Part shown: positions 1,539 to 61,073 of the stretch, piece after piece
Layout of the letters: each line of letters begins with the position of its first letter
Numbering within the stretch: position 1 is the stretch's first letter
The notes under the pieces: generated by a model
What the model was told of the DNA's origin: nothing
Database searches by the model: none
What the model saw: the letters and a program-made list of their open reading frames with translations, nothing else
Translations under genes and position numbers: made by a program
DNA from: an uncultured virus (IMG/VR IMGVR_UViG_3300042879_001731)
Taxonomy: Duplodnaviria > Heunggongvirae > Uroviricota > Caudoviricetes
Length of the DNA: 64,000 nucleotides
Direction: 5' to 3' (one strand)
Virus record (IMG/VR): IMGVR_UViG_3300042879_001731

Positions 1539-2036
1539 ATGCAAGAACAATGGAAGCCAGTAGTCGGCTATGAAGGATTATATGAAGTATCAAATTTTGG
1601 TAGAGTTAAAAGTTTACCAAGATACAAAACAATAAAATCAGAAAAAATTTTAAAGCAAAATTTAAAATCTGAATATTTTTATGTTAGACTTTATAACAAA
1701 TCTTTATATCAAGATATAAAAGTACATCAATTAGTTTCAATGTCTTTTTTAGGATATAAAAGAAATGGATTGCAAGATGTAGTTGTAGATCATATTAATG
1801 AAAATAAACTTGATAATAATTTAAACAATTTGCAATTAACAACTCAAAGGTATAATTCATCTAAATCTAAAATTAGTAATACAGGAATTACAGGTGTTTA
1901 TAAAACTAAATACAATAAATTTAGAGCAAATATAAAAGTGGGTTCTAAACAAATTCATTTAGGATATTTTAAAACAAAAGAAGAAGCACATTTAGCTTAT
2001 CAAAACAAATTAAAAGAAATACAAAATGGAAGATAA
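1539..2036 (+). CDS. NUMOD4-HNH homing endonuclease with AP2-like C-terminus
   Basis: EQWKPVVGYEGLYEVSNFGRVKS (NUMOD4), VDHINENKLDNNLNNL (HNH), HLGYFKTKEEAHLAY (AP2-like). Confidence 0.92.
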   Translation: MQEQWKPVVGYEGLYEVSNFGRVKSLPRYKTIKSEKILKQNLKSEYFYVRLYNKSLYQDIKVHQLVSMSFLGYKRNGLQDVVVDHINENKLDNNLNNLQLTTQRYNSSKSKISNTGITGVYKTKYNKFRANIKVGSKQIHLGYFKTKEEAHLAYQNKLKEIQNGR

Positions 2037-10205: not shown

Positions 10206-10637
10206 ATGGGAAGACCTAATAAGATACACAGCCCTGAACATCTATGGGAGTTATTCCAAGCGTATAAGAAAAACACGAAAGAGAATCCTTTTATTGTAAA
10301 AGACTATGTAGGTAAAGATGCCGAAATGGTATATAGAGAGAAAGAAAGACCTCTGACAATGGAAGGGTTGAATAATTATGTTTTTGACATGGGTATTATT
10401 CATGGATTAGATAACTATTTTGCTAACTCGAGAGGAAGATACAAGAAATTTTCAAGCATCTGTCGCGCAATTAAAGAACAAATACGACAAGATCAAATCG
10501 AAGGTGGCATGGCAGGAATGTATAATCCATCTATCACGCAGCGTCTAAACAACCTTGTAGAAAAGACACAGACTACAATAGTTGAACAACCGCTTTTTAA
10601 TTTGGAATCAGAAGAGGAGGAAGAAAACGAAGATTAA
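10206..10637 (+). CDS. terS: Terminase small subunit (P22 gp3-like)
   Basis: MGRP N-terminus, RPLTMEGL, GGMAGMYNPSITQRL; directly upstream of TerL. Confidence 0.8.
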   Translation: MGRPNKIHSPEHLWELFQAYKKNTKENPFIVKDYVGKDAEMVYREKERPLTMEGLNNYVFDMGIIHGLDNYFANSRGRYKKFSSICRAIKEQIRQDQIEGGMAGMYNPSITQRLNNLVEKTQTTIVEQPLFNLESEEEEENED

Positions 10638-10639
10638 AT

Positions 10640-11842
10640 ATGTTTAAAGTAACTACATCAATTAGGAAGATTCTCGCCCTGAAGAATCGTATTAAGATTA
10701 TACAGGGTGGAACTTCCGCTCTTTAGTCCCCTCTGAAAATAGTAGGAGGGGACGACCATGCAGGTAAGACGTTCGGTATTCTACCGATACTCATAGACAA
10801 AGCAGCAAGGCATTCAGGACTTGAGATAAGTGTAGTAGCTGAAACTATCCCACACTTACGTAGGGGTGCTTTAAAAGACTTTCTAAAGATAATGAAGTGG
10901 ACAGGTAGATACAATGATGAACACTTTAATAAATCACTTTTAAGATACGAATTTGGAAATGCAAGTATTATTGAATTCTTTTCGGCTGATGATAGTAGTA
11001 AGCTACGTGGTGCTCGTAGGGATATTTTATATATTAATGAGTGTAACAATGTCACTTTTGAATCGTATAACGAACTTGCTATTCGTACTAAAAAAGAAAT
11101 TTACTTAGACTTTAACCCAGCTAATGAGTTTTGGGTGCACACGGAATTGAAAGACGAACCTGATTCAGATTTCATAATTCTGACCTACAAGGATAACGAA
11201 GCCTTAGATCAATCCATAATAGACCAAATAGAAAAGAACAAGGAAAAGGCGAAGACCTCAGAGTATTGGCGTAATTGGTGGAATGTTTATGGATTAGGAT
11301 TGGTAGGAAGCCTTGAAGGAGTAGTTTTTAACAACTGGAAGTTAATAGATACCATACCTACCGAAGCAAGGTTGATAGGAATAGGCTTAGACTTTGGTTA
11401 TAGTGTTGACCCTACGGCAATAGTAGCTATATATACATACAACGGTTTACGAATTGTAAAGGAATTAGTTTACAGAAATGGAATGTTAAACACAGATATA
11501 GCAAGAGAATTGCCTAAAAATGTTGCTGTATATGCTGATAGTGCAGAGCCTAAAAGTATTGAAGAAATAAGAAGACAAGGAATAACGATAAAAGGCGTTA
11601 CAAAAGGTAAGGATTCTATCAACTACGGGATAGACGTAATGCAAAGACAAGAGTATTTAGTAACGTCAGACAGTACTAACCTCATCAAAGAGCTTCGTTC
11701 GTATTGTTGGGACACTGATAAGACAGGAGTGAGATTAAATAAACCAGCGGGAGGGAACGATCACATTATAGATGCACTACGTTACCACGAGATGGAAACT
11801 TTAGGATTAAATTCAAGTTATGGGACATACGCCATCCGTTGA
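10640..11842 (+). CDS. terL: Terminase large subunit (PBSX-like), interrupted by a 42-nt insert with in-frame TAG
   Basis: ATG 10640 in frame with ORF 10892; QGGTSA-[insert]-GKT Walker A, LYINE Walker B, DFNP, GLDFG, DHIIDALRY nuclease motifs. Confidence 0.9.
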
Positions 11843-22229: not shown

Positions 22230-22260
22230 GGGGAGGGCGGTTATTCTCCCTCCCTTTTTT
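22230..22260 (+). terminator. Rho-independent terminator
   Basis: gggaggg...ccctccc plus T7. Confidence 0.85.
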
Positions 22261-22855: not shown

Positions 22856-22884
22856 AGGGAGGCTTAGGTCTCCCTTTTCTTTTT
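22856..22884 (+). terminator. Rho-independent terminator
   Basis: agggaggc ttag gtctccct plus T-rich tail. Confidence 0.75.
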
Positions 22885-35336: not shown

Positions 35337-35599
35337 AACGGAAGTAATATTTTGACATTTCATTTTTTAATTTAACAAAAAACAAAATGGTATCAACTAT
35401 TATTTTAATTTGTTTATTGAGTGTTAGATTTTTCTACCATACATTTAGACATAAAGAAACTATGAAGGGTGAATATAATTCATTTCATGCTTTATTCACA
35501 TCAGTCATATATCTTGTATTGTATTACTATGCAGGATTATTTGACAAATTCTAATTTAACAATGGGCAGGTGAGATTCCTGCCCTAAACTTTTTATCCG

Positions 35600-37966
35600 A
35601 TGATTACAATTTTTAAAAACATAAACGAAACAGGTAAGCCCTACTACATATCTGTAGAGAATGCTTTAGGTCGGATAAGAGATGGTAAGAGCAAGTCATT
35701 GCTTGACAAGATAAGAGTTACTGAGGACAAGGAGGAGAGGAACGAGCTAAAGAAAAAGCTACCTAGTGTTTGTTTCGGAGGGCGTTTTGCATCTAGAGCT
35801 GACAATGAGCTTATTAGTCCGTCTGGTATTATGTCTATCGATTTCGATGGGTTTGAGACAGATGACGAGCTGAAGGCCAAACGTTTTGAGCTAGAGATGG
35901 ATGACTATACTTACGCTCTGTTCACATCTCCGTCAGGTAATGGACTAAAGGTTCTAGTTAAGATACCATCTACAGATCCTAAAGGATACAAGGCATATTT
36001 TAAGGCTATACAGCAGTACTATAATTGCCCTAATTTTGATCGGTCATGCAGCAATATATCTCGAGTTACCTATGAATCTTTTGATCCGCAGGTTTACATT
36101 AACCAAGATAGTGTAACCTGGACAGAGATGGAGGAAGAGAAAAAGCCTGAAGTAAGAAAGGTAACTATTGCTATTGACGATCAAAACAAAACGATAGAGT
36201 TCCTTCACAAGTGGTGGGAAAAAGACTATGGACTTGTTTCTGGCAGCCGGAATCAAAACTTATTCATCCTTGCATCTGCCTACAATCAATACGGTATATC
36301 TTTACAGGATGCTGTTGACTCTCTATCAAGATTTGAACAGCCTGATTTTAGTGCGCTTGAGATACTTGCAACAGTTACATCAGCTTACAAGAATACATCT
36401 GAGCATAACACAAAGAAATTTGAAGATAAGGAGAAGGTAGATGCTGTTAAGGAACTAGTTGCTAGATCAGTTCCTATAGAATCAATAAGAGAACTTGTAC
36501 CTGAAGCAACCACCGAGGTTATCTCGGAGATATCCAATGAGATATGCGAGAGCGAGTTTTGGTTCAAGTCAAAGAAGGACATGCGCGTATCATTCATCAA
36601 TCACAAGTATAGAGACTTCCTTGTTGACAATGGATATATGAAATTTTATCCAGCGAAAGACAGTTCATTCATGCTTGTTCATGTAAATGGTAATGTAATA
36701 AACGAAGTATTAGATGATAATGTTCGTGACTTTGTATTTGACTATTTATACAACATGGATGACAAGAGTGTATATGATGCTTATGCAGAGAAGATAAAGT
36801 TAGGTAAAGAAGACTTTCTAGCATTCCTTCCAAACGTTAGGCCTAAGTTCTTAAGAGATGGGAAAAAACATTCTTATATATACTTTAGAAACTGTGCTGT
36901 AAAGATTACCTCTAAAAACATAGAGACAATAAGCTATGAGGAGTTAGGTGGATTTGTTTGGGAAAGACAAATAATTAATAGAGATTATAAGCCTTTGGAT
37001 TATTCAGATTCTGAGTACAAGCGATTTATAACTAATATATCAGGGAATGATCCAGACAGGTTAAGGACGATGGAGTCAACTATAGGGTATATGATGCACA
37101 ATTACAATGATAGTGCTTACAATCCGGTAGTAATTTTAAATGATGAGATGATATCCGACAAGCCTGAAGGTGGTACTGGTAAAGGTATATTCGTTAATGG
37201 TATAGCTAAGTTAAGGAACGCTGTCTTTATTGATGGAAAGAAGTTTGATCCAAAAGATAAGTTCCAATATCAACGCGTAACTCCTGATACACAAATACTT
37301 GCTTACCAAGATATAGACAAGAACTTTAGGTTTGATTTGTTGTTTTCTCAGGTGACTGACGGTATGACTGTAGAGATGAAGAATCAGAAGCAGTTATACT
37401 TTCCGTTCGAAGAAATACCAAAGATGGTAATCACTACTAACCATGCCATAAAAGGTGATGGCAACTCTGACGAACGAAGAAGATGGGAACTTGAGTTTAC
37501 TCAATATTATAAAAATGGATTTACTCCATTCCAAGAGTTTGGACATAACTTATTTGATGGATGGACAGATAAAGAGTGGTGCAGATTTGATAACTATATG
37601 ATATCAAACCTTCAACTTTATTTATCAAAAGGTCTTGTTAGAAGTAAATTTAAAAACCTAAAAGTAAGAAAACTTGAAGCTGCCACATCATCTGAATTTA
37701 GAGAATGGGTTCTTGGTAAGGATAAGAAATATGACCTTAATACAGGAATAGAATATCTTGGTCAAGACTTACTTAATGACTTCTGCATGAACTATCCTGA
37801 TTATGGACTTACTGGTAAGATAAAGATAACCCACAGAACGTTCTATAGATGGTTAGATGAGTATGCTAAGTATAGATATGGGACAAAGTTGATTGAGTTC
37901 CATGGCTTCAATGGCAAGGTAGTTAGATTTATAGATGGAGAAAAACAAACAGAATTATGTATATAG
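35600..37966 (+). CDS. Primase-helicase (BT4734/VirE-N-like + PriCT + SF3-like ATPase)
   Basis: LKKKLPSVCFGG, SIDFD, FTSPSGNGLK, GSRN, GGTGKG, ITTNH. Confidence 0.85.
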   Translation: MITIFKNINETGKPYYISVENALGRIRDGKSKSLLDKIRVTEDKEERNELKKKLPSVCFGGRFASRADNELISPSGIMSIDFDGFETDDELKAKRFELEMDDYTYALFTSPSGNGLKVLVKIPSTDPKGYKAYFKAIQQYYNCPNFDRSCSNISRVTYESFDPQVYINQDSVTWTEMEEEKKPEVRKVTIAIDDQNKTIEFLHKWWEKDYGLVSGSRNQNLFILASAYNQYGISLQDAVDSLSRFEQPDFSALEILATVTSAYKNTSEHNTKKFEDKEKVDAVKELVARSVPIESIRELVPEATTEVISEISNEICESEFWFKSKKDMRVSFINHKYRDFLVDNGYMKFYPAKDSSFMLVHVNGNVINEVLDDNVRDFVFDYLYNMDDKSVYDAYAEKIKLGKEDFLAFLPNVRPKFLRDGKKHSYIYFRNCAVKITSKNIETISYEELGGFVWERQIINRDYKPLDYSDSEYKRFITNISGNDPDRLRTMESTIGYMMHNYNDSAYNPVVILNDEMISDKPEGGTGKGIFVNGIAKLRNAVFIDGKKFDPKDKFQYQRVTPDTQILAYQDIDKNFRFDLLFSQVTDGMTVEMKNQKQLYFPFEEIPKMVITTNHAIKGDGNSDERRRWELEFTQYYKNGFTPFQEFGHNLFDGWTDKEWCRFDNYMISNLQLYLSKGLVRSKFKNLKVRKLEAATSSEFREWVLGKDKKYDLNTGIEYLGQDLLNDFCMNYPDYGLTGKIKITHRTFYRWLDEYAKYRYGTKLIEFHGFNGKVVRFIDGEKQTELCI

Positions 37967-44524: not shown

Positions 44525-44558
44525 AAAAGAAACCCCTGGTTTGCGCCAGGGGATTTTT
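44525..44558. terminator. Bidirectional terminator between convergent arms
   Basis: A-run, cccctgg/ccagggg stem, T-run. Confidence 0.85.
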
Positions 44559-47500
44559 TATCTGTTCTTGTATTTTTTATTATATATTACAATGGCATTC
44601 TTTGATACTTTTCTTCCTGAAGCAGCCATTGCTTTATTTAGACTACTAACTTCCTCTGAATCCAAATCAGTTCCGTATCTGTTGTAAAGTTTCAACGCCT
44701 GTACTTCAGGTGTATCTTCATAGATTATATCTAGAATTGATTTATCCACATTCATATTTCTAATGTAGGCGTAATATTTTTCTACATATTTACGAACATC
44801 TTTTTTGTCAAAATTATCTTTGACCATATCTATCAATTCGCCATTAGTCATTTTTTCACCTTTGTCATATATTGACTTTATCTCGTTGTATACTTTCTGC
44901 TCTTTATTGTATATTTCAGTTTCTATTAGCATTTCTTTTGCTTCAGCTTCATCTTGTTTTTTATACATTAAGATATCTTTATTTGTTTTTCTAACAAGTT
45001 TCCTTTCTGCAGATTCAAATACTTTTCCAAGTCCTTCTGTAAATTCTTTTCCAAAAGAACTGTCTTTAGTAAATACACCATTAGCAGCACCATTAAATAT
45101 TGCTATTGTAGGGTTTGTATTTTCACTCGTAATTATTTTTTCTACAAATGCTTTTGTTCTTATTGGTGAAAGACCCAACTTAGGTGCCAACACTTTATAA
45201 ATATCTTCTACTTTATTATCATATATACCTTCAGATGTAGGATCTATTTTTTTGTTTTTAGGTTCTCTAAATACTTTTTCTCCTGTGAACGTATCTTCAT
45301 TGAAATGATATGTAAGTAATCCAGATACAAGTGGGTTTCTTGACATTATATCAGATGGCATAAGTGGAGTAGACATTTCTATAGATGTGTTTATTACTTT
45401 ATCATCTAATTTGTATGAATCACCAAGTAAATGTTTATACAAATATTGTTCTGATATCGTACTTAAAACAGATAGTAATGGAAGCTTTTTGATTCTTACA
45501 TATGTATACTCTCCATTCTCATCTACATTTCCTGTAAATATTATATGATAGTTTGCTTTTTCGTAATCACTTAATGATGCTAAAGTGTTTGCTATTTTCT
45601 TTTTCTTCTCCTCTTCATCATCACCAGGGATAGCTTTTGCTAATGCAGCTAAAGACATACCAGCAACACTTCCTGCCATTAAAGATGCTTGTATCATTGA
45701 CGATGCAAAAGCAACTGGATTTTTTCTAGCATAATCTAATGGTCTTCTAAAACCTTGAAGTGATGCATTTAAATATGGCATTACAAGATCTGCTTGTTTA
45801 GCCCAGTCACCACCTTGACTAAAATCTATAGTTTCTCTAGCCTCTCTTGTAGCTTCATACATTATATCCTCAAGATCTTGACCTGTAGGTTCAGTGCCAT
45901 TCTCTTTTTTATAATCTGATATTAAGTCATTTTTAACCTTATCGTATACAGATAATCTAAATGCAACTTCAGATGTCTCTCCTAAGAATGCCATAGCTTT
46001 TCCATATCCAAGAATTAATTTGTGTATCGGACTAAATATCTTAAATCCTGGATTTAACTCTTTTATGGCTCTAATACCATCATTTGACATATAGTCCATT
46101 GCTCCACCATGTTCTACATATTCTCTATATGTTTTATTTAGAGTGTCTTTCTGTATGGCTTTTCTAAAGAAGTTCTTAGTAAAATCCCATCCTAATCTCA
46201 ATCCACCAAGCACCTTAAATTTGCCCAATCCTTTTGAGTATACATCAGAGAACAATAATATATTTTGGAAGTCAACAGCGGTGTTACCAATTATAAATAA
46301 TGGGTTACCACCTGTAGCAAAGAAACGAAGTATCTGACCACCAGTTAACTTACCAATCAATTCAAATCCTTTGTTTTTGTTTTTTATATCTAACAATTGA
46401 TTTGCAAAACTTTCCTTGACTATAATATATTGTTGAACACCATTTTTATAATAGTTTATTTTTCTATATCCAAGCGGAAGTTTTTCATCGTCATATTTAC
46501 GTTTTGGCCTGCCATCTTTGTAAGATCCAATAATAGGATTATCTGTAATCATAAATTCAGATAGTGCTATCTTTTCTTCAGCCGTGGAGTTTTCTACAGC
46601 TTTGGCAAATTCTCTCAACATTTTATTTTCAAATGCACGAGATTCAACCGTTTCTATATTCATCATTAAAAGCCATCTTGAGTCAGTTATAATTTCATTC
46701 TCATTCTGATCAGTTAATTTCATTATATCTTTTTTAGATACTCCTAATCTAGCAGCTTCCTTGTCTATATCTCCTATATCAGTATCTTCTGAAATTAAAT
46801 ACTTTAATGTCTTTATAGGAGAATATTCTAAGTCTCTTAAGCTTTCATATGTCTCTTTAACTATTCTTCCAGACTCATATAATTTATCTAGGTTTTCTCT
46901 AAATACATCAAAGTATGCATCTGCTCTAGAATTTAATTTATCAAAAGTAGCATCTCCTATTTCTGATCTAATTTTAGCTAAATCATTTTGAGCATTAACT
47001 TCTGAATAACCACCCATACCTCTATATGGATTCATTCCATTTGCTTTTCTGTTTTCATTTACAGATATTACACGCCTTGCATATATTATCTTATCAAGAG
47101 CATCTAGTTGCTTTTTATTTAATCCTTTATATATTTTTCCTTCAGCCTCTTTAAATCTAAATGCAGCTAATCCCTTTGCCCCGGCTTTGTTTATAAGAAG
47201 ATTGTACGCTCTTCTAGCATCTACTCCACTTATACCTTTTATAATTCTCTTAGCTGCAGCTTGTCTATCAAGAAACTTCTGTCTTATAAATCTTAATGCC
47301 CTAACTACTATATTGCCTTTTTTCTTTTTATTTAAAGCTTCTTTGCTTTTATTGAATATCTCATCAATCGACATTGATCCAGCTACACCTGCAGACATTG
47401 CATTTGTTATCTGCTGCTGTGTATAACCTTGATTTAACAAGTACTGTGTAATTGCAGCATCAGAGAAACCATTCTGTCTAGCTGTAGATATGATTTGAGT

Positions 47501-50500
47501 CATACCTTGAGGTGTTTGCTTTCTAGCTTCGAATGAATTGTCTATTGCAGATATGCTTTTTACACCAGCACCATATGGAGCAACTACCTGTGACTTTTGA
47601 GCTTCTGCTGTTATGTTTGAGTATTTGTCTTTTATTTCTTTTGGCATTATGTCAAATGCATTCACTTTTTTATTTGGAACACCTATTACTTCTCCAAGTA
47701 AATCATTCTCATAAGTTGAGTGCTGTGATTTTCCGCCAACAGATTTTGGCTTTAATACCAACATGATATCATTCATCTTGAAATTATTTTCTTTATAGAA
47801 TCCATCTCTTAATTCATTAGGATCTATAAACGCATTGTAATTTTCAAGTACTTCTTTTAATCTTGTTCCCTTTTTAGTTTTTACATCTTCAAATGCATTT
47901 AGCAATTTTTTTCTATCTGGCGATTGTTTAATTGAATCCCAACTATCATGAGACTCCATAACCTCTCTGACAGCTTTTATTGGATTAGATTCTAATACAT
48001 CTTTTTTAAATGAATTAAAATCTCCTACTCTTTCTTGAAGTAACTCAAATACACTTACATTAAAAAACTTACTAGCAGTAGGGCTTCCACTTATTATGAA
48101 TATGTAATCAGAAGAATTTATAAATCTGTTAAGTTCTTTAGCTGATTTTCCAGATGCCCAAATTATGCTTTTATCTCTATTTTTAGGATCTAATGCATAG
48201 GATGGACCTGCATCTAAATAATGTTCTTTACCTATTACATTATCAAAATACATTCCTCGTCCCAATTGGTCAGCAACCCAGAACCATACTTTCTGATTTT
48301 TATTAGATATCTCATTTATCAATGATTCTATATCTACCAAATCTTTTTCTGTTACAAAAGACAAATCAAATTTTTTGTCTATAGCTACAGCTTCTTGCTT
48401 TCTAGATAATTTGTTTATTATAGAAGGTATAGATATGAATGTAGATGATCCTTCAGCTATAGCTTTAATATCATTACTTGTAATCTCTTCACCTTTAGCA
48501 ACTTTTTGTGAGACAGTATTCATAAAGTCAATAACTTCTCTATCAGTTAATGGCTTTAATCCAAATATCTTTGCGATTCTATCTAAAAATCTTCTTATCA
48601 GATTTTGAGTTGTAGTAGGTAGAGTTACATAATTGTCTGCCAGGATAGCAAACAATTCAGCCAACTTCTCTTCATTCTGAATATTTTCCTCATAGTTTGA
48701 AGCAAAGTCATTAAGATAAGATATAACCTGCCCTGCTCCTTCTACATTAACCAAAGATTTTCTAACAGCGTCTATCATTGCTTTGGTTAATCTTTGCGCC
48801 TCAAGATCAGTATTTATTCCGTTAAGTATAACAGCATGAAATACTTCGTGAGCTGCAGTTCTATTGTTTGCCTTAGAAGCATTTATATGTATAGTCTTAG
48901 TCTTTGGATTATATTCTCCTGCAGATGATTGTGAACGACCCTCTTCGTTTGTTGCTTTTCGATATGACTTATCATTATCGTGAACTACAAATTTAACACT
49001 AGGCAAAATTTTGGATATTGACTTGGCTGCATTAACTATTGACTCAGCAACCTTTTTGTTATCCTTAGATATTTTAATGCCTTTAAATTGCTCATCAATC
49101 TGTTCATCTGTACCTTCTAGTAGTTTACCAAGTGCTTCAACTTCCGCTTGAACTTCAGGAGCAACTGCCTCTTCAGTTGTTACTTCTTCTGCGACTGCTG
49201 TTGGTTCAGTAGGTAATGACATTTCGGCTCTATCTGATTTCTCAAATAAATCACCAATATTTTCTTTATTATAGTCAACTTGAATCTGCCCATCAATTAC
49301 AGGTCTATATCCTTGATCGTAAAGATTTTCAGCTTCATTCTCTTTTACAGTGATAGAAGATGGAGATAATTTTTCAGCTTCAAATACAACTATATTTTTT
49401 ACTCCTTGTTTTTCATTTAAAGATAAATCTTCATCTATAAATGAAGCAGCTTCAAATCCTTTGTTTTTTAAAGAATCAAATAATTTTTGTTTATTGTCAT
49501 CTCCAATATAAGTTTCTTCAAATCTTGGATCTATTAATTCATACAATCTTGATTCATCATTAACTTCTACTCCAAGTTCAGATATAGCATTTGTTACATC
49601 TTGTTCAGATGCTACAGCATTTTTAGGTATAGTATATTTAATAACATTTCCTTGATTGCCTTTAGCGTATTCAGTAGCTTGATTTTTATCTTCTGTTACA
49701 TAAATATCACCAGTCTTTTCATCCATTGATCCACCATGATAGACATCAATAGTTTCTACCCCTTCTTCTTGGACACCCCTGCCTTCGACAGGGCGATTGC
49801 CAAGATCTGTGCCTTGCTGCGTGGTTTCCCCGACTGGCCTTTCTCCTTCCCTGACTTGAGGTTGTCCTTCATTAACTCCCTCACGTTGTAAGCCACCGCC
49901 TTCTGCTGTGACTTCTTCGACTGGTTTTGTGCTTTCTTTAACGGCATTTTCTGATATGTTTTTAAGTTCGTTATTAATATCGGCAATTCTTGCCTTTTGC
50001 ACTGCAACAAGATTTTCATCTTTTCCTGCAATTTCTTTTTCTATTTTTGATCTTTCTATCAATAAGTCAAAAGACTTATTTCTATTTTCGTCAGTGATAT
50101 TATCAGGAAGTTTTTCAAATGTATTTGCAGTTTCATTAACAGCATCTATTTGTTTTTGTCCTTCTTCCTTAGTTAATTCACCATTAACTATTTTAGTTTT
50201 TATTTTTGTTACCATCATTGACCTAAGTTCTGAATCAGTAACAGATTTTTCTAAAATCTCAATAGCTAATTTGTTTTTGTTAGATATACCATCAGTTATT
50301 GCTTTAGTAGCTTGAACTGGAGACTGCATAATAGCACCTCCCATCGCTCCTAAATATGCAGCTTCAAATGATTGAGCAAGTAAACTTTCAGGTTCTTCAA
50401 ACATTTTTTTGCCTTTCATGGCATTATAAATCTTCTTTATACTTCCTTCTGCAAGTTCTTGTGCAAATTCAGTAGAACCTTCTACAAGAGCACCCCCAGC

Positions 50501-52246
50501 TACATTTATAGCCCCCTTAGCTAACAATGCTTTTACATTTGTATTTATTGCTTGTTCAAGCATCTCAGCAGTAGCATCTTTTGGAAGATCTCCAACTGTT
50601 TTTAATAATACTTTATTTATTATTGATTTTGATATTGGATTTTTAGACATTATTTTTTCTAATCCAAATTTTTCAAGCCATCCAACAGTAAGACCTATAG
50701 TGCTTGCCACTAATGTTTTTTCAAGTTCAGGTACTCCGTTAAAATCTGGATTATCATCCATTTCATCTTTAACATCGTAATATGTTTGAGCGTAAAAAGA
50801 AGGAAGCGTAGCAACGCCACCACCTCCTACGGCAGCTCCTATACTATTGCTTAAACTAAATAGTACTTTCTCTATATCACTTCTTTCTTTAGATGTAGCA
50901 AATTCTTGAGTAGTATAATCTGAACCTATTAACTTAATAAGTTCCTCTTGCGATGATCTTTCAAGTCCGGCAAATCTCCATATGTTTGTAGCTCCTTTTA
51001 AGAAGTTATTTATCATTGCTCCTCCAGTGGAACCTTTTCCTTCTTTAAACAACATATACTCTCCAGCAATGTCGTCTAATTTTGTTTGATATGATTTACT
51101 TAATTGTAGATTTTGATCTAATGAACTAGTTTCTTTATTTAGCATTTCAGCTCTTCCTTCTAATGCTAATTTTCTTTCTGTTAGTTCTGGAGTTTCAATG
51201 CCATTATTTCTTTCAAGATCTGCTTGCCATCTTACAACTTCATCATCATATTCTTTAGACTTTCTATTAAGATCAACACTAACTCTTGCTATGTCATTAA
51301 GACTATTGCTTATATATCTATTTTGTTTTGCAATCTCATCTTTATTTCCATAAACAGCGGCAACTCTAGCCCTTACTTCAGCATCGTCTTCTTTTCCCTT
51401 TGTCTGTTTAGCTTTATTTATATCAGTCATAAGAGCATCCATTCTGCTCTTATTATACTTCATAGCTTCTTTTTCTTTTTCTTTTAACTTTAGTTGAGTC
51501 TTTATATCTAAAGCTAATTCGTCCGGTATTTCTGCAGACATATTTGAGAAAGCATCGCTTTTTAAACTTTCTCTTTGTTTTGGAGTTATGTTTTTTATTG
51601 CTGATATTTCATCATCAATTTTATTGTACCTTTCTCTATCAATGGTATTTATATTTTCTTTAAGCCATGCTTTTAATCTAACTGCTTCAGATGAATCTCC
51701 TTCATCTGTCCAATTGTCAAGCATAAATACTTCAGAATTCTTTCCATCTTGCGTTATAACTCTAATCCTATCTCCAACTCCTGTTTGTTCAAAGTTAAAA
51801 CCTAAACGCCCATAATTTTTTTGAAGATATGGTACAACTTTTTCTTCTTCGTTATCTATAAGTTTGCCAGATATGCCTTCAAATCCTTCAGAAGGAACTA
51901 TATTTTTTTTGTATTGTTTATTAAGACCAATTATAGCATTTGAGTCCTTTACTGTAACCCAATCTTTCCCTGGTTCTTTTCTTTGCCAGTTATTATTTAT
52001 AATTCTATATTGATTGTCTTCTTTAGTTGGAAAGTTTGTAAATACTTCCACTTTATTTTTTGATACAGAAGTACCCAAAGGCTTTTGAGTTTCCTTGGAT
52101 GGAGTACCCGAAGAAATAGGTTTTGGTTTTTGTACGGATGGTGATACCGTAGTTTCTTTTTTTTTTACAGGTTGGAATTTTTCCCAAGGTTTTTGCTCTT
52201 GAGATTCACTTGCATATATTTCCCACGGTTTTTTTTCGTCTGGCAT
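44558..52246 (-). CDS. Giant polyvalent/internal virion (ejection) protein, ~2560 aa
   Basis: ART-like VYHG...IYVT...ATEYA, zincin AHEVFH...EEKLAE, LPD38-like IDFSQGG...PYLNASLQG. Confidence 0.75.
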   Translation of the reverse strand: MPDEKKPWEIYASESQEQKPWEKFQPVKKKETTVSPSVQKPKPISSGTPSKETQKPLGTSVSKNKVEVFTNFPTKEDNQYRIINNNWQRKEPGKDWVTVKDSNAIIGLNKQYKKNIVPSEGFEGISGKLIDNEEEKVVPYLQKNYGRLGFNFEQTGVGDRIRVITQDGKNSEVFMLDNWTDEGDSSEAVRLKAWLKENINTIDRERYNKIDDEISAIKNITPKQRESLKSDAFSNMSAEIPDELALDIKTQLKLKEKEKEAMKYNKSRMDALMTDINKAKQTKGKEDDAEVRARVAAVYGNKDEIAKQNRYISNSLNDIARVSVDLNRKSKEYDDEVVRWQADLERNNGIETPELTERKLALEGRAEMLNKETSSLDQNLQLSKSYQTKLDDIAGEYMLFKEGKGSTGGAMINNFLKGATNIWRFAGLERSSQEELIKLIGSDYTTQEFATSKERSDIEKVLFSLSNSIGAAVGGGGVATLPSFYAQTYYDVKDEMDDNPDFNGVPELEKTLVASTIGLTVGWLEKFGLEKIMSKNPISKSIINKVLLKTVGDLPKDATAEMLEQAINTNVKALLAKGAINVAGGALVEGSTEFAQELAEGSIKKIYNAMKGKKMFEEPESLLAQSFEAAYLGAMGGAIMQSPVQATKAITDGISNKNKLAIEILEKSVTDSELRSMMVTKIKTKIVNGELTKEEGQKQIDAVNETANTFEKLPDNITDENRNKSFDLLIERSKIEKEIAGKDENLVAVQKARIADINNELKNISENAVKESTKPVEEVTAEGGGLQREGVNEGQPQVREGERPVGETTQQGTDLGNRPVEGRGVQEEGVETIDVYHGGSMDEKTGDIYVTEDKNQATEYAKGNQGNVIKYTIPKNAVASEQDVTNAISELGVEVNDESRLYELIDPRFEETYIGDDNKQKLFDSLKNKGFEAASFIDEDLSLNEKQGVKNIVVFEAEKLSPSSITVKENEAENLYDQGYRPVIDGQIQVDYNKENIGDLFEKSDRAEMSLPTEPTAVAEEVTTEEAVAPEVQAEVEALGKLLEGTDEQIDEQFKGIKISKDNKKVAESIVNAAKSISKILPSVKFVVHDNDKSYRKATNEEGRSQSSAGEYNPKTKTIHINASKANNRTAAHEVFHAVILNGINTDLEAQRLTKAMIDAVRKSLVNVEGAGQVISYLNDFASNYEENIQNEEKLAELFAILADNYVTLPTTTQNLIRRFLDRIAKIFGLKPLTDREVIDFMNTVSQKVAKGEEITSNDIKAIAEGSSTFISIPSIINKLSRKQEAVAIDKKFDLSFVTEKDLVDIESLINEISNKNQKVWFWVADQLGRGMYFDNVIGKEHYLDAGPSYALDPKNRDKSIIWASGKSAKELNRFINSSDYIFIISGSPTASKFFNVSVFELLQERVGDFNSFKKDVLESNPIKAVREVMESHDSWDSIKQSPDRKKLLNAFEDVKTKKGTRLKEVLENYNAFIDPNELRDGFYKENNFKMNDIMLVLKPKSVGGKSQHSTYENDLLGEVIGVPNKKVNAFDIMPKEIKDKYSNITAEAQKSQVVAPYGAGVKSISAIDNSFEARKQTPQGMTQIISTARQNGFSDAAITQYLLNQGYTQQQITNAMSAGVAGSMSIDEIFNKSKEALNKKKKGNIVVRALRFIRQKFLDRQAAAKRIIKGISGVDARRAYNLLINKAGAKGLAAFRFKEAEGKIYKGLNKKQLDALDKIIYARRVISVNENRKANGMNPYRGMGGYSEVNAQNDLAKIRSEIGDATFDKLNSRADAYFDVFRENLDKLYESGRIVKETYESLRDLEYSPIKTLKYLISEDTDIGDIDKEAARLGVSKKDIMKLTDQNENEIITDSRWLLMMNIETVESRAFENKMLREFAKAVENSTAEEKIALSEFMITDNPIIGSYKDGRPKRKYDDEKLPLGYRKINYYKNGVQQYIIVKESFANQLLDIKNKNKGFELIGKLTGGQILRFFATGGNPLFIIGNTAVDFQNILLFSDVYSKGLGKFKVLGGLRLGWDFTKNFFRKAIQKDTLNKTYREYVEHGGAMDYMSNDGIRAIKELNPGFKIFSPIHKLILGYGKAMAFLGETSEVAFRLSVYDKVKNDLISDYKKENGTEPTGQDLEDIMYEATREARETIDFSQGGDWAKQADLVMPYLNASLQGFRRPLDYARKNPVAFASSMIQASLMAGSVAGMSLAALAKAIPGDDEEEKKKKIANTLASLSDYEKANYHIIFTGNVDENGEYTYVRIKKLPLLSVLSTISEQYLYKHLLGDSYKLDDKVINTSIEMSTPLMPSDIMSRNPLVSGLLTYHFNEDTFTGEKVFREPKNKKIDPTSEGIYDNKVEDIYKVLAPKLGLSPIRTKAFVEKIITSENTNPTIAIFNGAANGVFTKDSSFGKEFTEGLGKVFESAERKLVRKTNKDILMYKKQDEAEAKEMLIETEIYNKEQKVYNEIKSIYDKGEKMTNGELIDMVKDNFDKKDVRKYVEKYYAYIRNMNVDKSILDIIYEDTPEVQALKLYNRYGTDLDSEEVSSLNKAMAASGRKVSKNAIVIYNKKYKNR
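49756..49947 (-). CDS. Nested out-of-frame small basic protein (MPLKK...AIALSKAG)
   Basis: Resembles a widespread phage small-protein motif; A-rich start context. Confidence 0.6.
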   Translation of the reverse strand: MPLKKAQNQSKKSQQKAVAYNVRELMKDNLKSGKEKGQSGKPRSKAQILAIALSKAGVSKKKG

Positions 52247-52248
52247 AT

Positions 52249-53772
52249 TTATTGTTTTTTCCAATTATTCTGATTAGATGGATCTCCTCCTAGAAATTTA
52301 TAACCACCAACTATATCTCCCTTTTTAGGTGTGGTTGTCTTAGTATTACCACTCAACCCTTTTGCAGTTCTATATTGAGTTCTTCCTTCTCTATATCTAG
52401 TTGTAGCATCAGCTTTACTACTACCACCTACAGCATAAAATGCTAATCCTTCTGGGTCAGTTGCTATATCTACTGGGTCTCCAACCATGTAGTTATCAGA
52501 AACTGGATATACTTTAACAGTTCCATTTTCAAACTTATATCTATACTTACTGCTTAATCCGCTAAAATTTTTAGTTCCGCCTTTGCCTCCTTCAGGAGTC
52601 ATTCCAAATGCATCCAATGTAGCGATATATCCTAGTTGGAATTTTTTAAGATCTTCTTTTTGTTTAGCTATATCTTTTTCTTCAGAATAAGTCATTCCAT
52701 CTCCACCATCGCCTCTACTAGGAGCAAATCCTCTTTCTTCTTTTCTTTTATTTACAAGGCTAACTTCAATATAGTCCTCAACTACCGACTGAGCATCCTT
52801 AATCATTTTTTCATTTATAACAGGCTGATATTTACCATCGTTATCTTGAACAACTTGAATTAAGTTTTCTCGGTTATATTTGTCTGCAAATTGAGCCTTC
52901 TCATCTTCAGACATTTGTTTGCCTGTAGCAAGTTCTTTATTAGATATTGCTTTTTGAATAAGGTTTATTCTTTGTTGTTCTGTATAATATTCTTGATAAT
53001 TTAAATTGGAATTATCTAACAATACAGAAACTACTGCTCTAGGGTTATTTGTATCTACAATCGATCCTATCAAATCAGCTTTAGCATTGTTATAGAATTC
53101 TTTATTCAATCTTATATCTTCTTCAGATACAACTGATCCGCTAGTTTGTAAATCCTCAAGAACCCAAGGCTCCCAATTTTTGATAACACTTTCAACTGTA
53201 TCAGCTACCTTTATTTTTTTATCTACAACATTATTCATGTTAGTATAATTCCTAACATTTTGGTATGTGCCATCATTTCCTACAACAAAAAAATCACCAT
53301 TGTTACCAACATCTAATTTTTTATTTGCAATATTCATCAGATCTGAATTTATTCCAGCAGAAAATATCATATGAGCAGACGCATCACCATCCTCAATAGC
53401 TTTATTTATTCCAACTACATAGCTATCTAAATTCTTAGACGCAGTTGTAAATGCATCAAATGAATCATTTAAATTATTTATTTTTCTTTGGTACTCAGAT
53501 CTTGTAATTTCTCCAGACTTTAACTGTCTGTTCCATTCCATGGATTTTTGTCTAGCTGCATCTAAACCTTTAAATGTAAATTCATTAAATGGTTGACTTT
53601 GTGTAGACTCCCAAGAGTTTAGTCTGTTACCTATATCTGTAAAAAGCTTTTCATCGGCAGCCTTTCTTTCTTCCCTTGCTTTAAGACCTTGATCTATATC
53701 TGTCTTAACGCCTTTAGCTAAAGAAAGCCAATCAATAGACTTGCCTGGTATATATCCTGCGTATTCTTGCAT
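52249..53772 (-). CDS. Putative internal virion/ejection protein
   Basis: Helical 507 aa; precedes the giant protein. Confidence 0.55.
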   Translation of the reverse strand: MQEYAGYIPGKSIDWLSLAKGVKTDIDQGLKAREERKAADEKLFTDIGNRLNSWESTQSQPFNEFTFKGLDAARQKSMEWNRQLKSGEITRSEYQRKINNLNDSFDAFTTASKNLDSYVVGINKAIEDGDASAHMIFSAGINSDLMNIANKKLDVGNNGDFFVVGNDGTYQNVRNYTNMNNVVDKKIKVADTVESVIKNWEPWVLEDLQTSGSVVSEEDIRLNKEFYNNAKADLIGSIVDTNNPRAVVSVLLDNSNLNYQEYYTEQQRINLIQKAISNKELATGKQMSEDEKAQFADKYNRENLIQVVQDNDGKYQPVINEKMIKDAQSVVEDYIEVSLVNKRKEERGFAPSRGDGGDGMTYSEEKDIAKQKEDLKKFQLGYIATLDAFGMTPEGGKGGTKNFSGLSSKYRYKFENGTVKVYPVSDNYMVGDPVDIATDPEGLAFYAVGGSSKADATTRYREGRTQYRTAKGLSGNTKTTTPKKGDIVGGYKFLGGDPSNQNNWKKQ

Positions 53773-56981: not shown

Positions 56982-59900
56982 TTATCCTTTTTGGAATGAT
57001 TCATTACCTGAATGAGAAACACCCATAACTATCACTTTTCCTAATCTTCCTCTAGCTTGCGTCAATATAAACTCTGCTTTCAAACCATCACAATAAGTAA
57101 CTTCAAATTTAACAGTTCTATTTAAACCTGTGTTGTTTAAAGAAACAGTGGCATTTATATCTTTTGATCCTGATCCTTCACTTGGGTAATCTGTAACCCA
57201 CTCAGTACCATATCCTGTATCAACTAAAGATAATTCCCATTCGATATCTGTATTTATGCTAAACATGTAATATCCAAGTGGTCCATTTTTTGGAACAGAG
57301 AACTTCTCTCTATTTATTGTCAATATACATGGAAGAACTCTCTGTTCGTTTGTAGACAATACATACATATTGTCATACGGATCATATGCTCCTATTTTCT
57401 GAGTAGTAGGATTGTCTTTCATCAAATCTCTAAAATAATCATTCAATCCATATGAAGATATTTCATCAATCTGATTCTCACTAAGTCTAAGCACAACGCC
57501 CCTTCTTGCATCAGTAAAAAACAATTGAGTTCCATATTTTGCAAATGACTCTGGGTTTTTACTTATGCCCCATTCTCCTGACATTGGTATTTGAGTTCCA
57601 AGCACTTCTGGTATTGTTACTATTTGACCGCCTCCTATAGAGTCAAACATTACATTTTTACCGTATAAAACATTTGATATTTTATTCTCTTGAAACACTA
57701 ATAAGTCTGTGTCTCTAGCGTATAATTTTTGAATTGAACCAAAATCTCTATCTAAATATTTAAAGTTTGAAAGAGATAAATTAAATTCATTTAGTCTATT
57801 CAGTGCAGTATTATATTGATAAACGCCACTATAGCAAATAGACGCTTCGTTTCTTATTTGTTTATAATTTTCTATTGGAACTTGAACTCTTACACTAAAT
57901 CCTTTTGTTGTTTGATTAAAGTCATCGTATATTCTATCTGATTCCAATCCATTCCCCCATGACCATCCATTATTATCAGTATTAAATGACATAGGTTTGT
58001 TTATTTCTATTTTTGCAGGTGTTGTTGCGTCATCTTGATCTTGTTCTTCTGTATTAAAAAACGAAACAGTACCAGGAGTCTCTGGCCCAGATCCTGGCCA
58101 TGGAGCATCTATAACTATAGTATATAAGTCAGGAACTTGAGTTACAGTCCAAGTATCATTAAGACCTGGTATTTCAGTTACAACATTTACTTTATCGCCT
58201 ACATTAAAATAATGAGGAACAGTTTTATCAAATTGAACAAGTTTGGTATATTCACCATCTGCAAACTGAAAATCATTGTAATGCCAAAGTACTATATGTT
58301 TCCCATCTACTATTGGATAAGTTTGAAACAATTCGTGATATATGTCTGAATCGTCTTCAATTGCAGATGTTTCACAAATATTTAAATTTTGCTGTTGTGT
58401 AATCTTGAAATTAACAACAAGCTTATTTTGTTTGTTATTATCTTGACCTGGACCACTATAAAAGGAAGCTGCTGTAGATCCATCATTTCCTGGGTTTGCA
58501 GGTACATCTGAGAATATAAACATTCTTACTGGCCACTCAGAATTGCTCAAATTATCTATATCTCCTATTATGTTATTTGAATTAAATGTTGTGTTAACAC
58601 CTGGAACTAATTGCCAATTTTTACCTCTTCTGAATACAACTCTTGATCCTTTTTTATTTTGTCCGTCTGTTCCTATATAATTAAATAAATTTCTCGCTCC
58701 AGATTCATACCACCACTCTTCTATATTATCATAATCTTGAGGAGACGGTGGAAATGGAATTTCTGGTTGCGTAAATCCTCCTGGATTATATGTATCCTCT
58801 ACAACTTGAATTCTTATTAGTGCACCTGTCAATATTTTTTTATCATTTGGAGGAGCATCATTCAACCATGTACTTGGTATTACTGCTGCACAATTGTTTT
58901 TTAAAATATAACTAGGAACTATAGCATTACTACTTACATGACCTAATTGACTTACTATATCATTAAAAGAAGCTCTACAATTAAAAATCCATCTATCACC
59001 AACATTATATGTAGATTGATTGAATATCACATTAAAATAATATGCAATATTTGTTGACACTCCTTCAGATATAGGTATATCAGATTCAATAAGTACATTA
59101 TTATTTTGAAGAGTATATTTGTTTATTGAATTTTTATATACAGAGTAAGTTGTAGGGCTATCTATTTGTATGGTTATCCTAGTATCTTCATTATCATCAT
59201 TATAATATTTTGCATATGATAATCCAAGAGTATTTGGAAGAGATATTCCATTTGAGTTTCCACTTCCATAAAATATTGGTCTTTCAACCCAACTTTCAGT
59301 AGGATAATTGCCTGGTGTTTGATATAATGTAAATGGAGACATTGGAATTATTGGAAGTGACGACAAAGGAGTCACCGCGCCTCCACCAATTCCAGTGGAT
59401 GAAGACGAATCTACATTAGATCCTGATAGTTCATTAGGAGTGTCTATTTTTATTTTAAAGTATAATCCAGCAATAGCATTAGATACAAAACCCTCAGGTT
59501 TTACTTCTATTTCTAATATCTTGTATTTTTTATTTGAATATGTAGGCCCTGAAGATATAGATTTAAAAATTACATATTCTCCAACTTGTATTTTACTTGC
59601 ATCCGATTCATTTATTAAAAAATATTTAAATAAATTATCAGTATATGAAATTATTGGAAATACATTATAATATGATTTTTTGCTTTGTTTTACATATACC
59701 CTATAATGTGTAGCCCAACAAGGTGGATTATTTTTTATGCTTAATACAATAGTATTTGATTTATCTGAATATAATGAAGGTATATATGTTGTATTACCAG
59801 TTAAATTACTAGGATATAATGGAGGAGCCGTAAGGACAGTTGACATTCTACCATATTTATCAAGATAAACTAATCCAATCTCGTAATCTCTATCTGATCT

Positions 59901-61073
59901 CCATGTAGATTTTGGATTTTCCTCATCAGAACTGCTCTGCTTTAATGTTAATGTATAATTTATATTTATATCATTGCCAAAGCAATCTACTATGTTTCTG
60001 AATTGAACATAATTACCATATGCTAATCTATTTCCTACTATATCTTGTGATTTAGCAAGCAAAGGGACATTGTCATATAGCCTAGTCACTTGATCATTTG
60101 GAAGTGCCGCATATACCTTGTTGTTGTTGAATGAAATAGTATATGACGAATCGTCCGGTATCTGAAGTTCAGATTTTGATATTGTATCTATAATACTAGT
60201 ATTTATATTTTTTGTGTCCTTTACAAATACTTGTATTTCTTTTACAAATTCATTTCCAGTCTCAATGGTTAATTTAACTGAATTGTAAAAGTTAGTCATT
60301 GACTTATTGTTTCCTACTCCGTAATCATAATTATATGACTTCGGCATAAATGCAACAGCCGAAAATGGAGACATTGAACTATATTGATCGTCAACATACT
60401 TATATCTATATGAAAAATATAGAAATTTCTCTGATATATTATTTGTGTTGTATACACTTAAATCATTATATAAATAAATACTTGGAGCAAACAAAGGCGG
60501 CTCTAGTACAACATCTATATCTTTATCTATTCTAGGGTCATCTATTTGATATCCTGAAGTTCCAGTGGGGTCAGATTTTACTCTAGTAATATTTATTCTT
60601 CTTGGAGGATTATAATTATCAGTCCAATATAAATAGTTGTTCTCATCATTTCCTCTTATGAAATTAACTCCTGTAATAGGAAATTCTTTTCTAAAATTAA
60701 GTTTTGACGGAGTCTCTTGGTTCAATTTGTTTGATTGTAAAACTCTTACAGCAATACCTGTAGGTTCATCATATTCATATATGCCATCAAATAAATCTCC
60801 AGCTACAAACCAATATATTTTACTGAATGCTTCATATTCAACACACCCAATAGTCTTTGCTGTATCTTCGTCTAATTGCTCAAATCCAGCTAAAGTACCA
60901 ATATCAACAACACGAGAGTTGCCCATTTTATTTTTAGCAACACCAGCATCTTCTCCCTTGCTTACGTTTACATCTATATTTAAAGCATCGCGATATTGAT
61001 TCTTTGGCATTAACCTCTCATCGAGGTCTTTATTCATTGAACCACTAATAAACGTATTATTAAATTCCGGCAT
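56982..61073 (-). CDS. Tail stabilisation/nozzle protein (P22 gp10/crAss muzzle-like), N-terminal part
   Basis: MNKDLDERL...YRDALNI, WTDNYNPPRRINI, GSIQKL, GISKNPESF, FTDARRG; C-terminal BACON-like domain. Confidence 0.75.
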   Translation of the reverse strand: MPEFNNTFISGSMNKDLDERLMPKNQYRDALNIDVNVSKGEDAGVAKNKMGNSRVVDIGTLAGFEQLDEDTAKTIGCVEYEAFSKIYWFVAGDLFDGIYEYDEPTGIAVRVLQSNKLNQETPSKLNFRKEFPITGVNFIRGNDENNYLYWTDNYNPPRRINITRVKSDPTGTSGYQIDDPRIDKDIDVVLEPPLFAPSIYLYNDLSVYNTNNISEKFLYFSYRYKYVDDQYSSMSPFSAVAFMPKSYNYDYGVGNNKSMTNFYNSVKLTIETGNEFVKEIQVFVKDTKNINTSIIDTISKSELQIPDDSSYTISFNNNKVYAALPNDQVTRLYDNVPLLAKSQDIVGNRLAYGNYVQFRNIVDCFGNDININYTLTLKQSSSDEENPKSTWRSDRDYEIGLVYLDKYGRMSTVLTAPPLYPSNLTGNTTYIPSLYSDKSNTIVLSIKNNPPCWATHYRVYVKQSKKSYYNVFPIISYTDNLFKYFLINESDASKIQVGEYVIFKSISSGPTYSNKKYKILEIEVKPEGFVSNAIAGLYFKIKIDTPNELSGSNVDSSSSTGIGGGAVTPLSSLPIIPMSPFTLYQTPGNYPTESWVERPIFYGSGNSNGISLPNTLGLSYAKYYNDDNEDTRITIQIDSPTTYSVYKNSINKYTLQNNNVLIESDIPISEGVSTNIAYYFNVIFNQSTYNVGDRWIFNCRASFNDIVSQLGHVSSNAIVPSYILKNNCAAVIPSTWLNDAPPNDKKILTGALIRIQVVEDTYNPGGFTQPEIPFPPSPQDYDNIEEWWYESGARNLFNYIGTDGQNKKGSRVVFRRGKNWQLVPGVNTTFNSNNIIGDIDNLSNSEWPVRMFIFSDVPANPGNDGSTAASFYSGPGQDNNKQNKLVVNFKITQQQNLNICETSAIEDDSDIYHELFQTYPIVDGKHIVLWHYNDFQFADGEYTKLVQFDKTVPHYFNVGDKVNVVTEIPGLNDTWTVTQVPDLYTIVIDAPWPGSGPETPGTVSFFNTEEQDQDDATTPAKIEINKPMSFNTDNNGWSWGNGLESDRIYDDFNQTTKGFSVRVQVPIENYKQIRNEASICYSGVYQYNTALNRLNEFNLSLSNFKYLDRDFGSIQKLYARDTDLLVFQENKISNVLYGKNVMFDSIGGGQIVTIPEVLGTQIPMSGEWGISKNPESFAKYGTQLFFTDARRGVVLRLSENQIDEISSYGLNDYFRDLMKDNPTTQKIGAYDPYDNMYVLSTNEQRVLPCILTINREKFSVPKNGPLGYYMFSINTDIEWELSLVDTGYGTEWVTDYPSEGSGSKDINATVSLNNTGLNRTVKFEVTYCDGLKAEFILTQARGRLGKVIVMGVSHSGNESFQKG

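Follow-up and report, generated by a model that had tools for sequence, protein, structure and literature searches.

A hairpin-bearing coding gap in the Walker A motif of a phage large terminase gene as a candidate translational bypass element

The gene for the large terminase subunit (terL) in an uncultured tailed virus (IMG/VR record IMGVR_UViG_3300042879_001731, Caudoviricetes) is interrupted within its Walker A motif, or P-loop, by 42 nucleotides (nt) that include an in-frame stop codon and a GC-rich hairpin. We refer to the whole 64,000-nt stretch of this phage DNA, which is 33% GC, as the window. Its terminase region contains the following features, in which ORF stands for open reading frame.

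10206..10637, plus strand: terS-like gene (DNA-packaging protein gp3 family; Pfam GP3_package, 1e-10), abutting terL
10640..10720, plus strand: terL ORF1, codons 1-27, MFKVTTSIRKILALKNRIKIIQGGTSA; the last codon, GCT at 10718-10720, is the proposed take-off codon
10721..10762, plus strand: 42-nt coding gap, consisting of CTT, TAG (10724-26), the hairpin, the spacer GACCAT, and the proposed landing codon GCA (10760-62)
10726..10753, plus strand: GC-rich hairpin of 9 pairs (10726-34 with 10745-53) and a 10-nt loop
10763..11842, plus strand: terL ORF2, 359 codons and a stop (11840-42), opening with GKTFGIL

The terL product is a large terminase of the PBSX/Terminase_3 type, with a Terminase_3 ATPase domain (PF04466, 3.8e-11) and a Terminase_3C RNaseH-like nuclease domain (PF17288, 1.7e-12), both above their Pfam cut-offs. 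ORF2 carries the remainder of Walker A, the ATPase domain, and the nuclease domain, and the gap with its TAG splits the P-loop into GGTSA and GKT. Positions 10640-11842 amount to 400 codons if the gap is read through, and to 386 without 10721-10762. The latter is the exact length of the nearest relatives, so the gap must be skipped exactly. Most of the best 120 database matches (more than 100) lack the insert, are also exactly 386 amino acids (aa) long and read IIQGGTSAGKTFGIL, the relatives' consensus, across the junction. Identity to nine selected relatives is 82-95%; seven of these are 385-387 aa long and two are truncated gene calls. The window has a single terL. A preliminary description of this locus had placed the terL ATG at 10640, followed by the N-terminus given above, GCT at 10718-20, CTT TAG and another 36 nt, and then GKTFGIL in the same frame, with alanine codons GCT and GCA at the ends of the insert and a 386-aa TerL upon its removal, all of which we confirm. 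The stem that it recognized (gtcccctc/gaggggac) is real and extends to nine pairs.

The insert is not an assembly artefact. Contigs from three lake-water metagenome runs of other studies (X2, X3, and X4) span 10721-10762 with no other letters and no gaps; a fourth run may be where the window itself comes from. The nearest virus record (G001; IMG/VR, 32,142 nt, rated 100% complete by CheckV) has a single Terminase_3 match and is 100% identical over 1,701 nt that include the insert. Dozens of related phages carry such gaps as well, often beside a selfish nuclease gene. A DNA search of cultured phages gave no match, and the closest cultured TerLs, from Flavobacterium phages at 52.7% identity, are without sign of a gap.

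Related gaps were collected with pattern scans that fixed only QGGT upstream and GKTFGI downstream, and that did not require a synonymous codon pair; gaps outside codons 25-28, or with Gln as CAA, escape these patterns. The scans yielded 44 viral-contig loci and 36 metagenome matches. Of the latter, 32 are genuine, and the other four (L169, L171, L172, and L189) are unrelated sequences that were dropped. Together with the window, this gives 77 loci with 37 distinct junctions (types), several metagenome loci being the same contigs as viral loci. The gaps are located at four adjacent Walker A codons (25-28) and measure 36, 37, 38, 39, 40, 41, 42, 43, or 44 nt with the landing codon counted in, and 15 of the 37 are not multiples of three. 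With the same flank patterns, no gaps of 55-85 nt were found, nor any of 1-23 nt among 120 loci in the matches listed. Contiguous, insert-less terL alleles in IMG/VR number at least 120.

Both parts of the interrupted gene are maintained. The 27 codons ahead of the gap read as a TerL N-terminus in all 44 viral-contig loci, and the downstream frame is open for 356-366 codons in 43 of them, the remaining one (L025) ending with its locus. In the metagenome loci, about 240 downstream codons are available, and they are open in all 32 genuine cases. Of the 77 loci, 64 have a start codon where one is expected; the L001 type lacks one at the aligned first codon, which the upstream HNH frame overlaps. 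Differences among insert-bearing loci at codon positions 1, 2, and 3 are 0.245, 0.228, and 0.511 in codons 1-25, and 0.269, 0.173, and 0.559 in the downstream part. Because third-position variation dominates in ORF1 as it does in ORF2, the small upstream ORF evolves as a protein-coding sequence, and purifying selection acts on both parts. With regard to the nascent-peptide signal of gene-60-type bypassing, residues 1-27 look alike in relatives with and without an insert. Public gene calls in two protein clusters, P0036 (369 aa, 35 members) and P0039 (353 aa), place the start of TerL within a related insert or past it (LKLVGGGDNAGKT...); it is the gap that makes these annotations too short.

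In-frame synonymous codons flank the gap in 32 of the 37 types, and skipping from one to the other restores GTSAGK, or GTSSGK in one lineage. The identity of the pair changes with the position of the gap, through Thr, Ser, Ala, and Gly. For Thr, the pair is ACT/ACA (four unique types). The Ser pairs are TCC/TCA (three types), TCG/TCA (two), and TCG/TCT (one, at position 27 in the lineage with Ser for Ala). The Ala pairs are GCT/GCA, which is the pair of the window (13 types), GCC/GCA and GCC/GCT (two each), and GCG/GCA and GCT/GCT (one each), and the Gly pairs are GGG/GGA, GGA/GGA, and GGA/GGC (one each). Landing codons end in A in 30 of the 37 types, and take-off codons do not end in A in 35. 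Moreover, the Ala take-off codon is GCY in 23 of 24 class-A types, compared with 37 of 120 insert-less genes among the matches listed. Such a wobble bias would fit a single tRNA with U34 that leaves a wobble pair and lands on a Watson-Crick pair.

The hairpin is very stable. The 91 nt around it have a minimum free energy of -34.3 kcal/mol (z -3.26), which none of 200 shuffles equalled. Its two-arm pattern occurs once in the window (0.00 expected from 100 shuffles), and it is the window's sole perfect stem of at least 8 base pairs with at most two A/T pairs. Among 22 unique viral types, hairpins have 7-14 pairs and energies of -13 to -23 kcal/mol, and several relatives have GNRA tetraloops (GCAA, GAAA, or GTAA). 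Pairing is preserved in 93.4% of the cells of this 22-type alignment, versus 80.3% in shuffled versions (0 of 500 as high), and two-sided changes occur in 33 cells, versus 12.4 in shuffles (0 of 500), affecting five of nine pairs; alignments slid out of register as controls are 54-66% paired. The check proposed in the preliminary description, for inserts at this place in relatives with a covarying stem, thus has a positive outcome. The C-run of the 5' arm begins 6-7 nt past the take-off codon in all 37 types and at each of the four codon positions, and the G-run of the 3' arm ends 4-13 nt ahead of the landing codon, with a spacer that is mostly A/U-rich.

The hairpin lacks a T-tail and is not listed by a terminator scan, so we rejected the possibility that it is an intrinsic terminator. 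It was also not assignable to a known RNA family: an Rfam scan of the insert with E values up to 10 gave no credible family, only chance-level snoRNA and miRNA matches. Other GC-rich hairpins in the window that were compared with the ORF list (22231-22254, 22856-22875, 35564-35584, and 44533-44552) lie between ORFs and are probably terminators, and none breaks a frame. In RNAfold predictions for the window (10716-10768) and for relatives, the take-off flank (CUUCCGC) often forms pairs with the flank on the landing side (GCAGGUAAG) so as to enclose the gap. Both strands of this flank complementarity are coding, and it is also present in insert-less genes.

The gap is associated with a homing endonuclease. 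An HNH ORF (182-189 aa, ending ...AYKFKWQYV) overlaps the terL start in 18 of the 43 insert-bearing viral loci that have enough upstream DNA, whereas an HNH motif is upstream of terL in one of 120 insert-less loci among the matches listed (Fisher p = 2.5e-11, for loci that are not phylogenetically independent). Representative HNH proteins are I-HmuI-like and have NUMOD4 and HNH_3 domains, with NUMOD1 present or absent, and their closest cultured homologues are annotated as HNH homing endonucleases. In L012, an HNH gene segment of 586 nt separates the terS and terL homologues; compared with the window, it is a clean insertion at exactly this boundary. HNH genes accompany gaps of the Thr, Ser, Ala, and Gly classes. 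The HNH gene is more distant in L026, and L016 has a GIY-YIG-like ORF that scores under the Pfam cut-off. In five other loci (L011, L019, L029, L017, and L018), the gap is present and an HNH gene is absent upstream of terL. In one of these, L011, the terS-terL interval is ~85-90 nt longer than in the window, and the additional DNA may be left over from an endonuclease gene that was deleted. The window has a free-standing ORF resembling HNH homing endonucleases (1539-2036, plus strand; NUMOD4 3.5e-16, HNH_3 3.2e-09, and a weak AP2 match), situated 8.6 kb upstream of terL and 38% identical over ~79 aa to the terL-adjacent HNH proteins of relatives.

The distribution of gaps among TerL lineages also suggests mobility. 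We used FastTree on the C-terminal parts of 33 non-identical insert-bearing and 108 insert-less TerLs, leaving out 11 identical insert-bearing proteins, L025, whose downstream part is short, and 12 of the 120 database proteins, which failed a filter on length and GKT position. The insert-less rows of this tree are the nearest matches to the window, and only insert-bearing loci therefore represent the deep clades. TerLs with and without an insert intermingle on the tree, which requires at least eight gains or losses, at least five of which are forced by well-supported branches; shuffled labels gave a mean of 30.1 changes, and 0 of 500 shuffles were as low. Some insert-bearing proteins, such as that of L017, are within 0.3-0.6% of insert-less ones. 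We conclude that the terL gap is a real, conserved, and mobile coding gap, which apparently spread through gene conversion driven by a homing endonuclease.

Judging from comparative sequence data, the gap is likely to be a translational bypass cassette similar to that of T4 gene 60, and probably one that gives immunity to an endonuclease. The ribosome would decode terL codons 1-27, which brings peptidyl-tRNA(Ala) onto GCT (10718-20), a codon read by wobble, while a C/G-rich hairpin of great stability begins 6 nt further on; at this point, pairing between codon and anticodon would be lost. It would then slide past the hairpin and spacer without decoding until the same tRNA re-pairs on GCA (10760-62), and decoding would restart at GGT AAG ACG, giving the normal 386-aa TerL with the P-loop GGTSAGKT. 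In origin, the gap could belong to a mobile cassette in which it confers immunity, its partner being the I-HmuI-like HNH gene between terS and terL. The gap breaks highly conserved Walker A coding DNA, which is the presumed recognition site of the nuclease, and the window would have retained the gap only. In the gene 60 family, the insert disrupts the site of the MobA endonuclease and thereby protects the gene, according to a preprint (bioRxiv 10.1101/2022.08.31.505936), and by analogy the terL gap may shield the Walker A coding region against the linked nuclease. What we infer is the hop, what sets it off, and the part of the gap in immunity; the anatomy of the gap, its family, the matched codons, the covariation, the selection on both ORFs, and the linkage to an endonuclease are observed. 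The preliminary description had suggested that a GCT-to-GCA hop or RNA excision regulates packaging. In-frame codon pairs, covariation, and purifying selection favour the hop, while a role in regulating packaging is unsupported, and the linkage to an endonuclease points to a selfish-element or immunity origin instead.

Several observations weigh against a bypass of this kind. In five of the 37 types the flanking codons are GCC/GTT or GCC/GTA, which would require a G-U pair at the middle position. A stop codon directly follows the take-off codon in only three types, and many types have no nearby stop, so an adjacent stop is not a family feature; the preliminary description was justified in its caveat that one codon separates GCT from the stop. 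That codon in the window, CTT, is a common Leu codon (17.7 per 1000), and is neither a stop nor rare. The hairpin excludes the take-off codon, unlike that of T4, and the trigger is thereby unexplained. Although the G-rich arm resembles a Shine-Dalgarno site, GGAG or GAGG is upstream of only one of 57 window genes, and help in landing from Shine-Dalgarno pairing, as in T4 bypassing with its element 5-7 nt ahead of the landing codon that pairs with 16S rRNA, is therefore doubtful. As regards immunity, the window has the gap but no endonuclease gene between terS and terL, and one insert-less locus among the matches listed (L106) has the HNH C-terminal motif just upstream of terL. The latter case could reflect an inactive nuclease, another specificity, or a resistant target sequence. 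Finally, the sequences are related, so that family counts are of non-independent events. In its boldest form, the bypass reading says that a stable hairpin 6-7 nt past a wobble-read P-site codon may suffice to launch ribosomes without a Shine-Dalgarno sequence or an adjacent stop.

One alternative is that the 36-44-nt hairpin is removed at the RNA level, as a new kind of mini-intron, with host or phage enzymes cutting it out of the mRNA and rejoining the ends. The 386-aa relatives demand exact removal, which this would supply, and the conserved, covarying hairpin could be the recognition element of a nuclease, with the frequently predicted pairing of the flanks bringing the junctions together. 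However, RNA removal does not predict in-frame synonymous pairs that shift identity with position in 32 of 37 types, leaving the matched codons unexplained, nor does it predict the bias toward landing codons that end in A. The insert is also far smaller than self-splicing introns and has no plausible Rfam match, and mRNA splicing of this hairpin-excision kind is not known in bacteria. We therefore prefer bypassing, on the basis of the matched codons that covary with position, the wobble asymmetry, and the fixed geometry between P-site codon and hairpin, and regard RNA removal as unlikely. The same low estimate applies to its specific version, in which a hairpin "micro-intron" is excised and religated by a phage or Bacteroidota enzyme pair and is spread by the homing endonuclease; if true, it would be a kind of mRNA splicing new to bacteria and their phages. 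Still less probable is a different hop, from Gly24 (GGA, 10709-11) to a GGA or GGC in the G-rich 3' arm, such that the last part of the insert supplies a substitute P-loop, which reads like GGDNVGKT or GGEKVGKT in place of GGTSAGKT. A Gly-Gly pair that keeps the GxxxxGKT spacing does occur in four of the five GCC/GTW types (L005, L020, L025, and L178), and a GGA of the window (10745-47) is in the ORF2 frame. Yet most types, L016 and those of classes C and D among them, lack the pair or have it in another frame, the window product would be one residue longer than that of every relative, and the constant distance of 6-7 nt between take-off codon and hairpin is left out of account.

It is also very unlikely that full-length TerL is not made at all, that is, that the gene is a pseudogene or is expressed as an N-terminally truncated product restarting in or after the insert, in a phage that is helper-dependent or dead. 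Gene callers do start the 369-aa product within a related insert in 35 member sequences (P0036), and the window has an ATG at 10758 with AGGAGG upstream. However, coding constraint on ORF1 persists in insert-bearing lineages, with the intact N-termini and open downstream frames described above, and the allele recurs across many samples and is present in a record that is rated complete. Restarting would break up GxxxxGKT, and there is no conserved in-frame start codon. We rejected restart at ATG 10758 in particular, which is out of frame and absent from many types. In the window (10744-10796), the AGGAGG is followed 8 nt on by this ATG, which opens an out-of-frame ORF of 12 codons; since the ATG is unconserved and the phage is without Shine-Dalgarno use, the arrangement is probably due to chance. 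The least credible alternative is that the TAG is read through or reassigned, and that TerL tolerates the translated insert. The window insert is 42 nt long with one TAG, it would indeed add 14 residues to the P-loop, as the preliminary description calculated, the product ...LKIVGGDDHAGKT again holds GxxxxGKT, and Pfam aligns Terminase_3 from residue 35. Nevertheless, readthrough is ruled out for the family as a whole by the 15 gaps that shift the frame, while others hold TAA or several stops; other window genes have no pattern of in-frame TAG, and the GG codons behind the apparent insert-encoded P-loop in LKIVGGDDHAGKT are a by-product of the G-rich stem arm. An alternative genetic code was rejected for the same reasons.

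Returning to the proposed bypass, the terL gap resembles the T4 gene 60/MobA system in many respects, as the preprint (bioRxiv 10.1101/2022.08.31.505936) describes it. Both are non-coding, stop-containing inserts in an essential, conserved phage gene, at a site that varies among lineages by no more than a codon or two. In both, the take-off codon matches the landing codon fully or at all but the wobble position, and there is a covarying, stable stem-loop, with some GNRA loops, and an A/U-rich stretch ahead of the landing codon. Both are also linked to HNH-type homing endonucleases, in the terL case in relatives of the window, with the gap kept and the nuclease lost in some lineages. Among the differences, the host gene is terL and not a topoisomerase subunit. 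In addition, the terL gap is 36-44 nt rather than the 50 (20-50) that the same source gives, and its hairpin begins 6-7 nt past the take-off codon, while the gene 60 hairpin contains that codon. The nuclease gene precedes terL, on the terS side, and leaves the gene unsplit, in contrast to gene 60. The terL family also differs in the rarity of adjacent stops and the phage's lack of Shine-Dalgarno use noted above, and take-off at codons 25-28 means that the nascent chain is very short, unlike that of gene 60.

The mitochondrial bypass elements (byps) of the yeast Magnusiomyces capitatus, according to the summary in that preprint (bioRxiv 10.1101/2022.08.31.505936), are likewise short (27-55 nt) and GC-rich in an AT-rich genome. 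They share with the terL gaps an absence of Shine-Dalgarno sites, an A/U-rich 3' part, matched codons, and mobile behaviour. However, byps are found at 81 sites in 12 genes, while the terL gap occupies one site in one gene. Candidate coding gaps are also reported from Streptomyces phage Hau3 and two prophages, in the gene for the large terminase; they are absent from close relatives, and a hop over them is proposed. These gaps are 7-10 nt long, start at a rare UUA "hungry" codon, have other positions and no linked endonuclease, and are proposed to act as a sensor of host state (PMC10732093).

Inteins and group I introns with homing endonucleases occur in the P-loop regions of phage terL genes. 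They occupy the same niche as the terL gap, in that a selfish nuclease acts on the most conserved terL DNA and the insertion marks the allele and is removed during expression. Unlike the gap, they are removed by protein or RNA splicing. An insert with stops or frame shifts is not an intein, and one of 36-44 nt with no Rfam match is not a known intron; neither a group I or II catalytic core (Rfam, E up to 10) nor an in-frame intein ORF was found in the 42-nt, stop-containing insert of the window.

The terL gaps are most likely a new family of bypass cassettes of the gene 60 kind, as their sequence features suggest. Full-text literature, searched without subscription papers and supplements, gave no account of hairpin gaps at the Walker A motif of TerL. 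By published accounts, efficient long-range bypassing is established in two settings, T4 gene 60 with its homologues and a single yeast mitochondrial lineage, and the preprint on these systems (bioRxiv 10.1101/2022.08.31.505936) terms the gene 60 cassette unique. A preprint of December 2024 from the field of bypassing lists gene 60, the Hau3 terminase candidates, and Magnusiomyces mitochondria in its introduction as cases of bypassing. A second, unrelated family of phage bypasses would offer 37 natural variants with four take-off positions, five codon families, and gaps of 36-44 nt, in hosts apparently without Shine-Dalgarno pairing, and hence a natural mutational series for the signals required in ribosome hopping. 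If the bold form of the bypass reading is true, long-range hopping would be a modular trick that has evolved repeatedly. Bypass gaps would also be a third route, beside introns and inteins, by which homing endonucleases enter essential genes. In practical terms, the gaps cause split or truncated terL gene calls, such as the 369-aa cluster P0036, which affects phage annotation and phylogenies based on terL.

Gene leaders in the window phage are A-rich, as is typical of Bacteroidota, and this property, together with the lack of Shine-Dalgarno use, fits the affinity to Flavobacterium phages and a BT4734-like primase encoded at 35600-37966. The primase is in a part of the window (~31340-64000) beyond the extent of the virus record G001, which is offset by 803 nt and would end near window position 31.3 kb. 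The same part includes an ORF of 2568 aa (44558-52264, minus strand) and a gene for a crAss muzzle-like protein (56982-61073, minus strand). Either the G001 record falls short of the full genome, or the window joins two entities.

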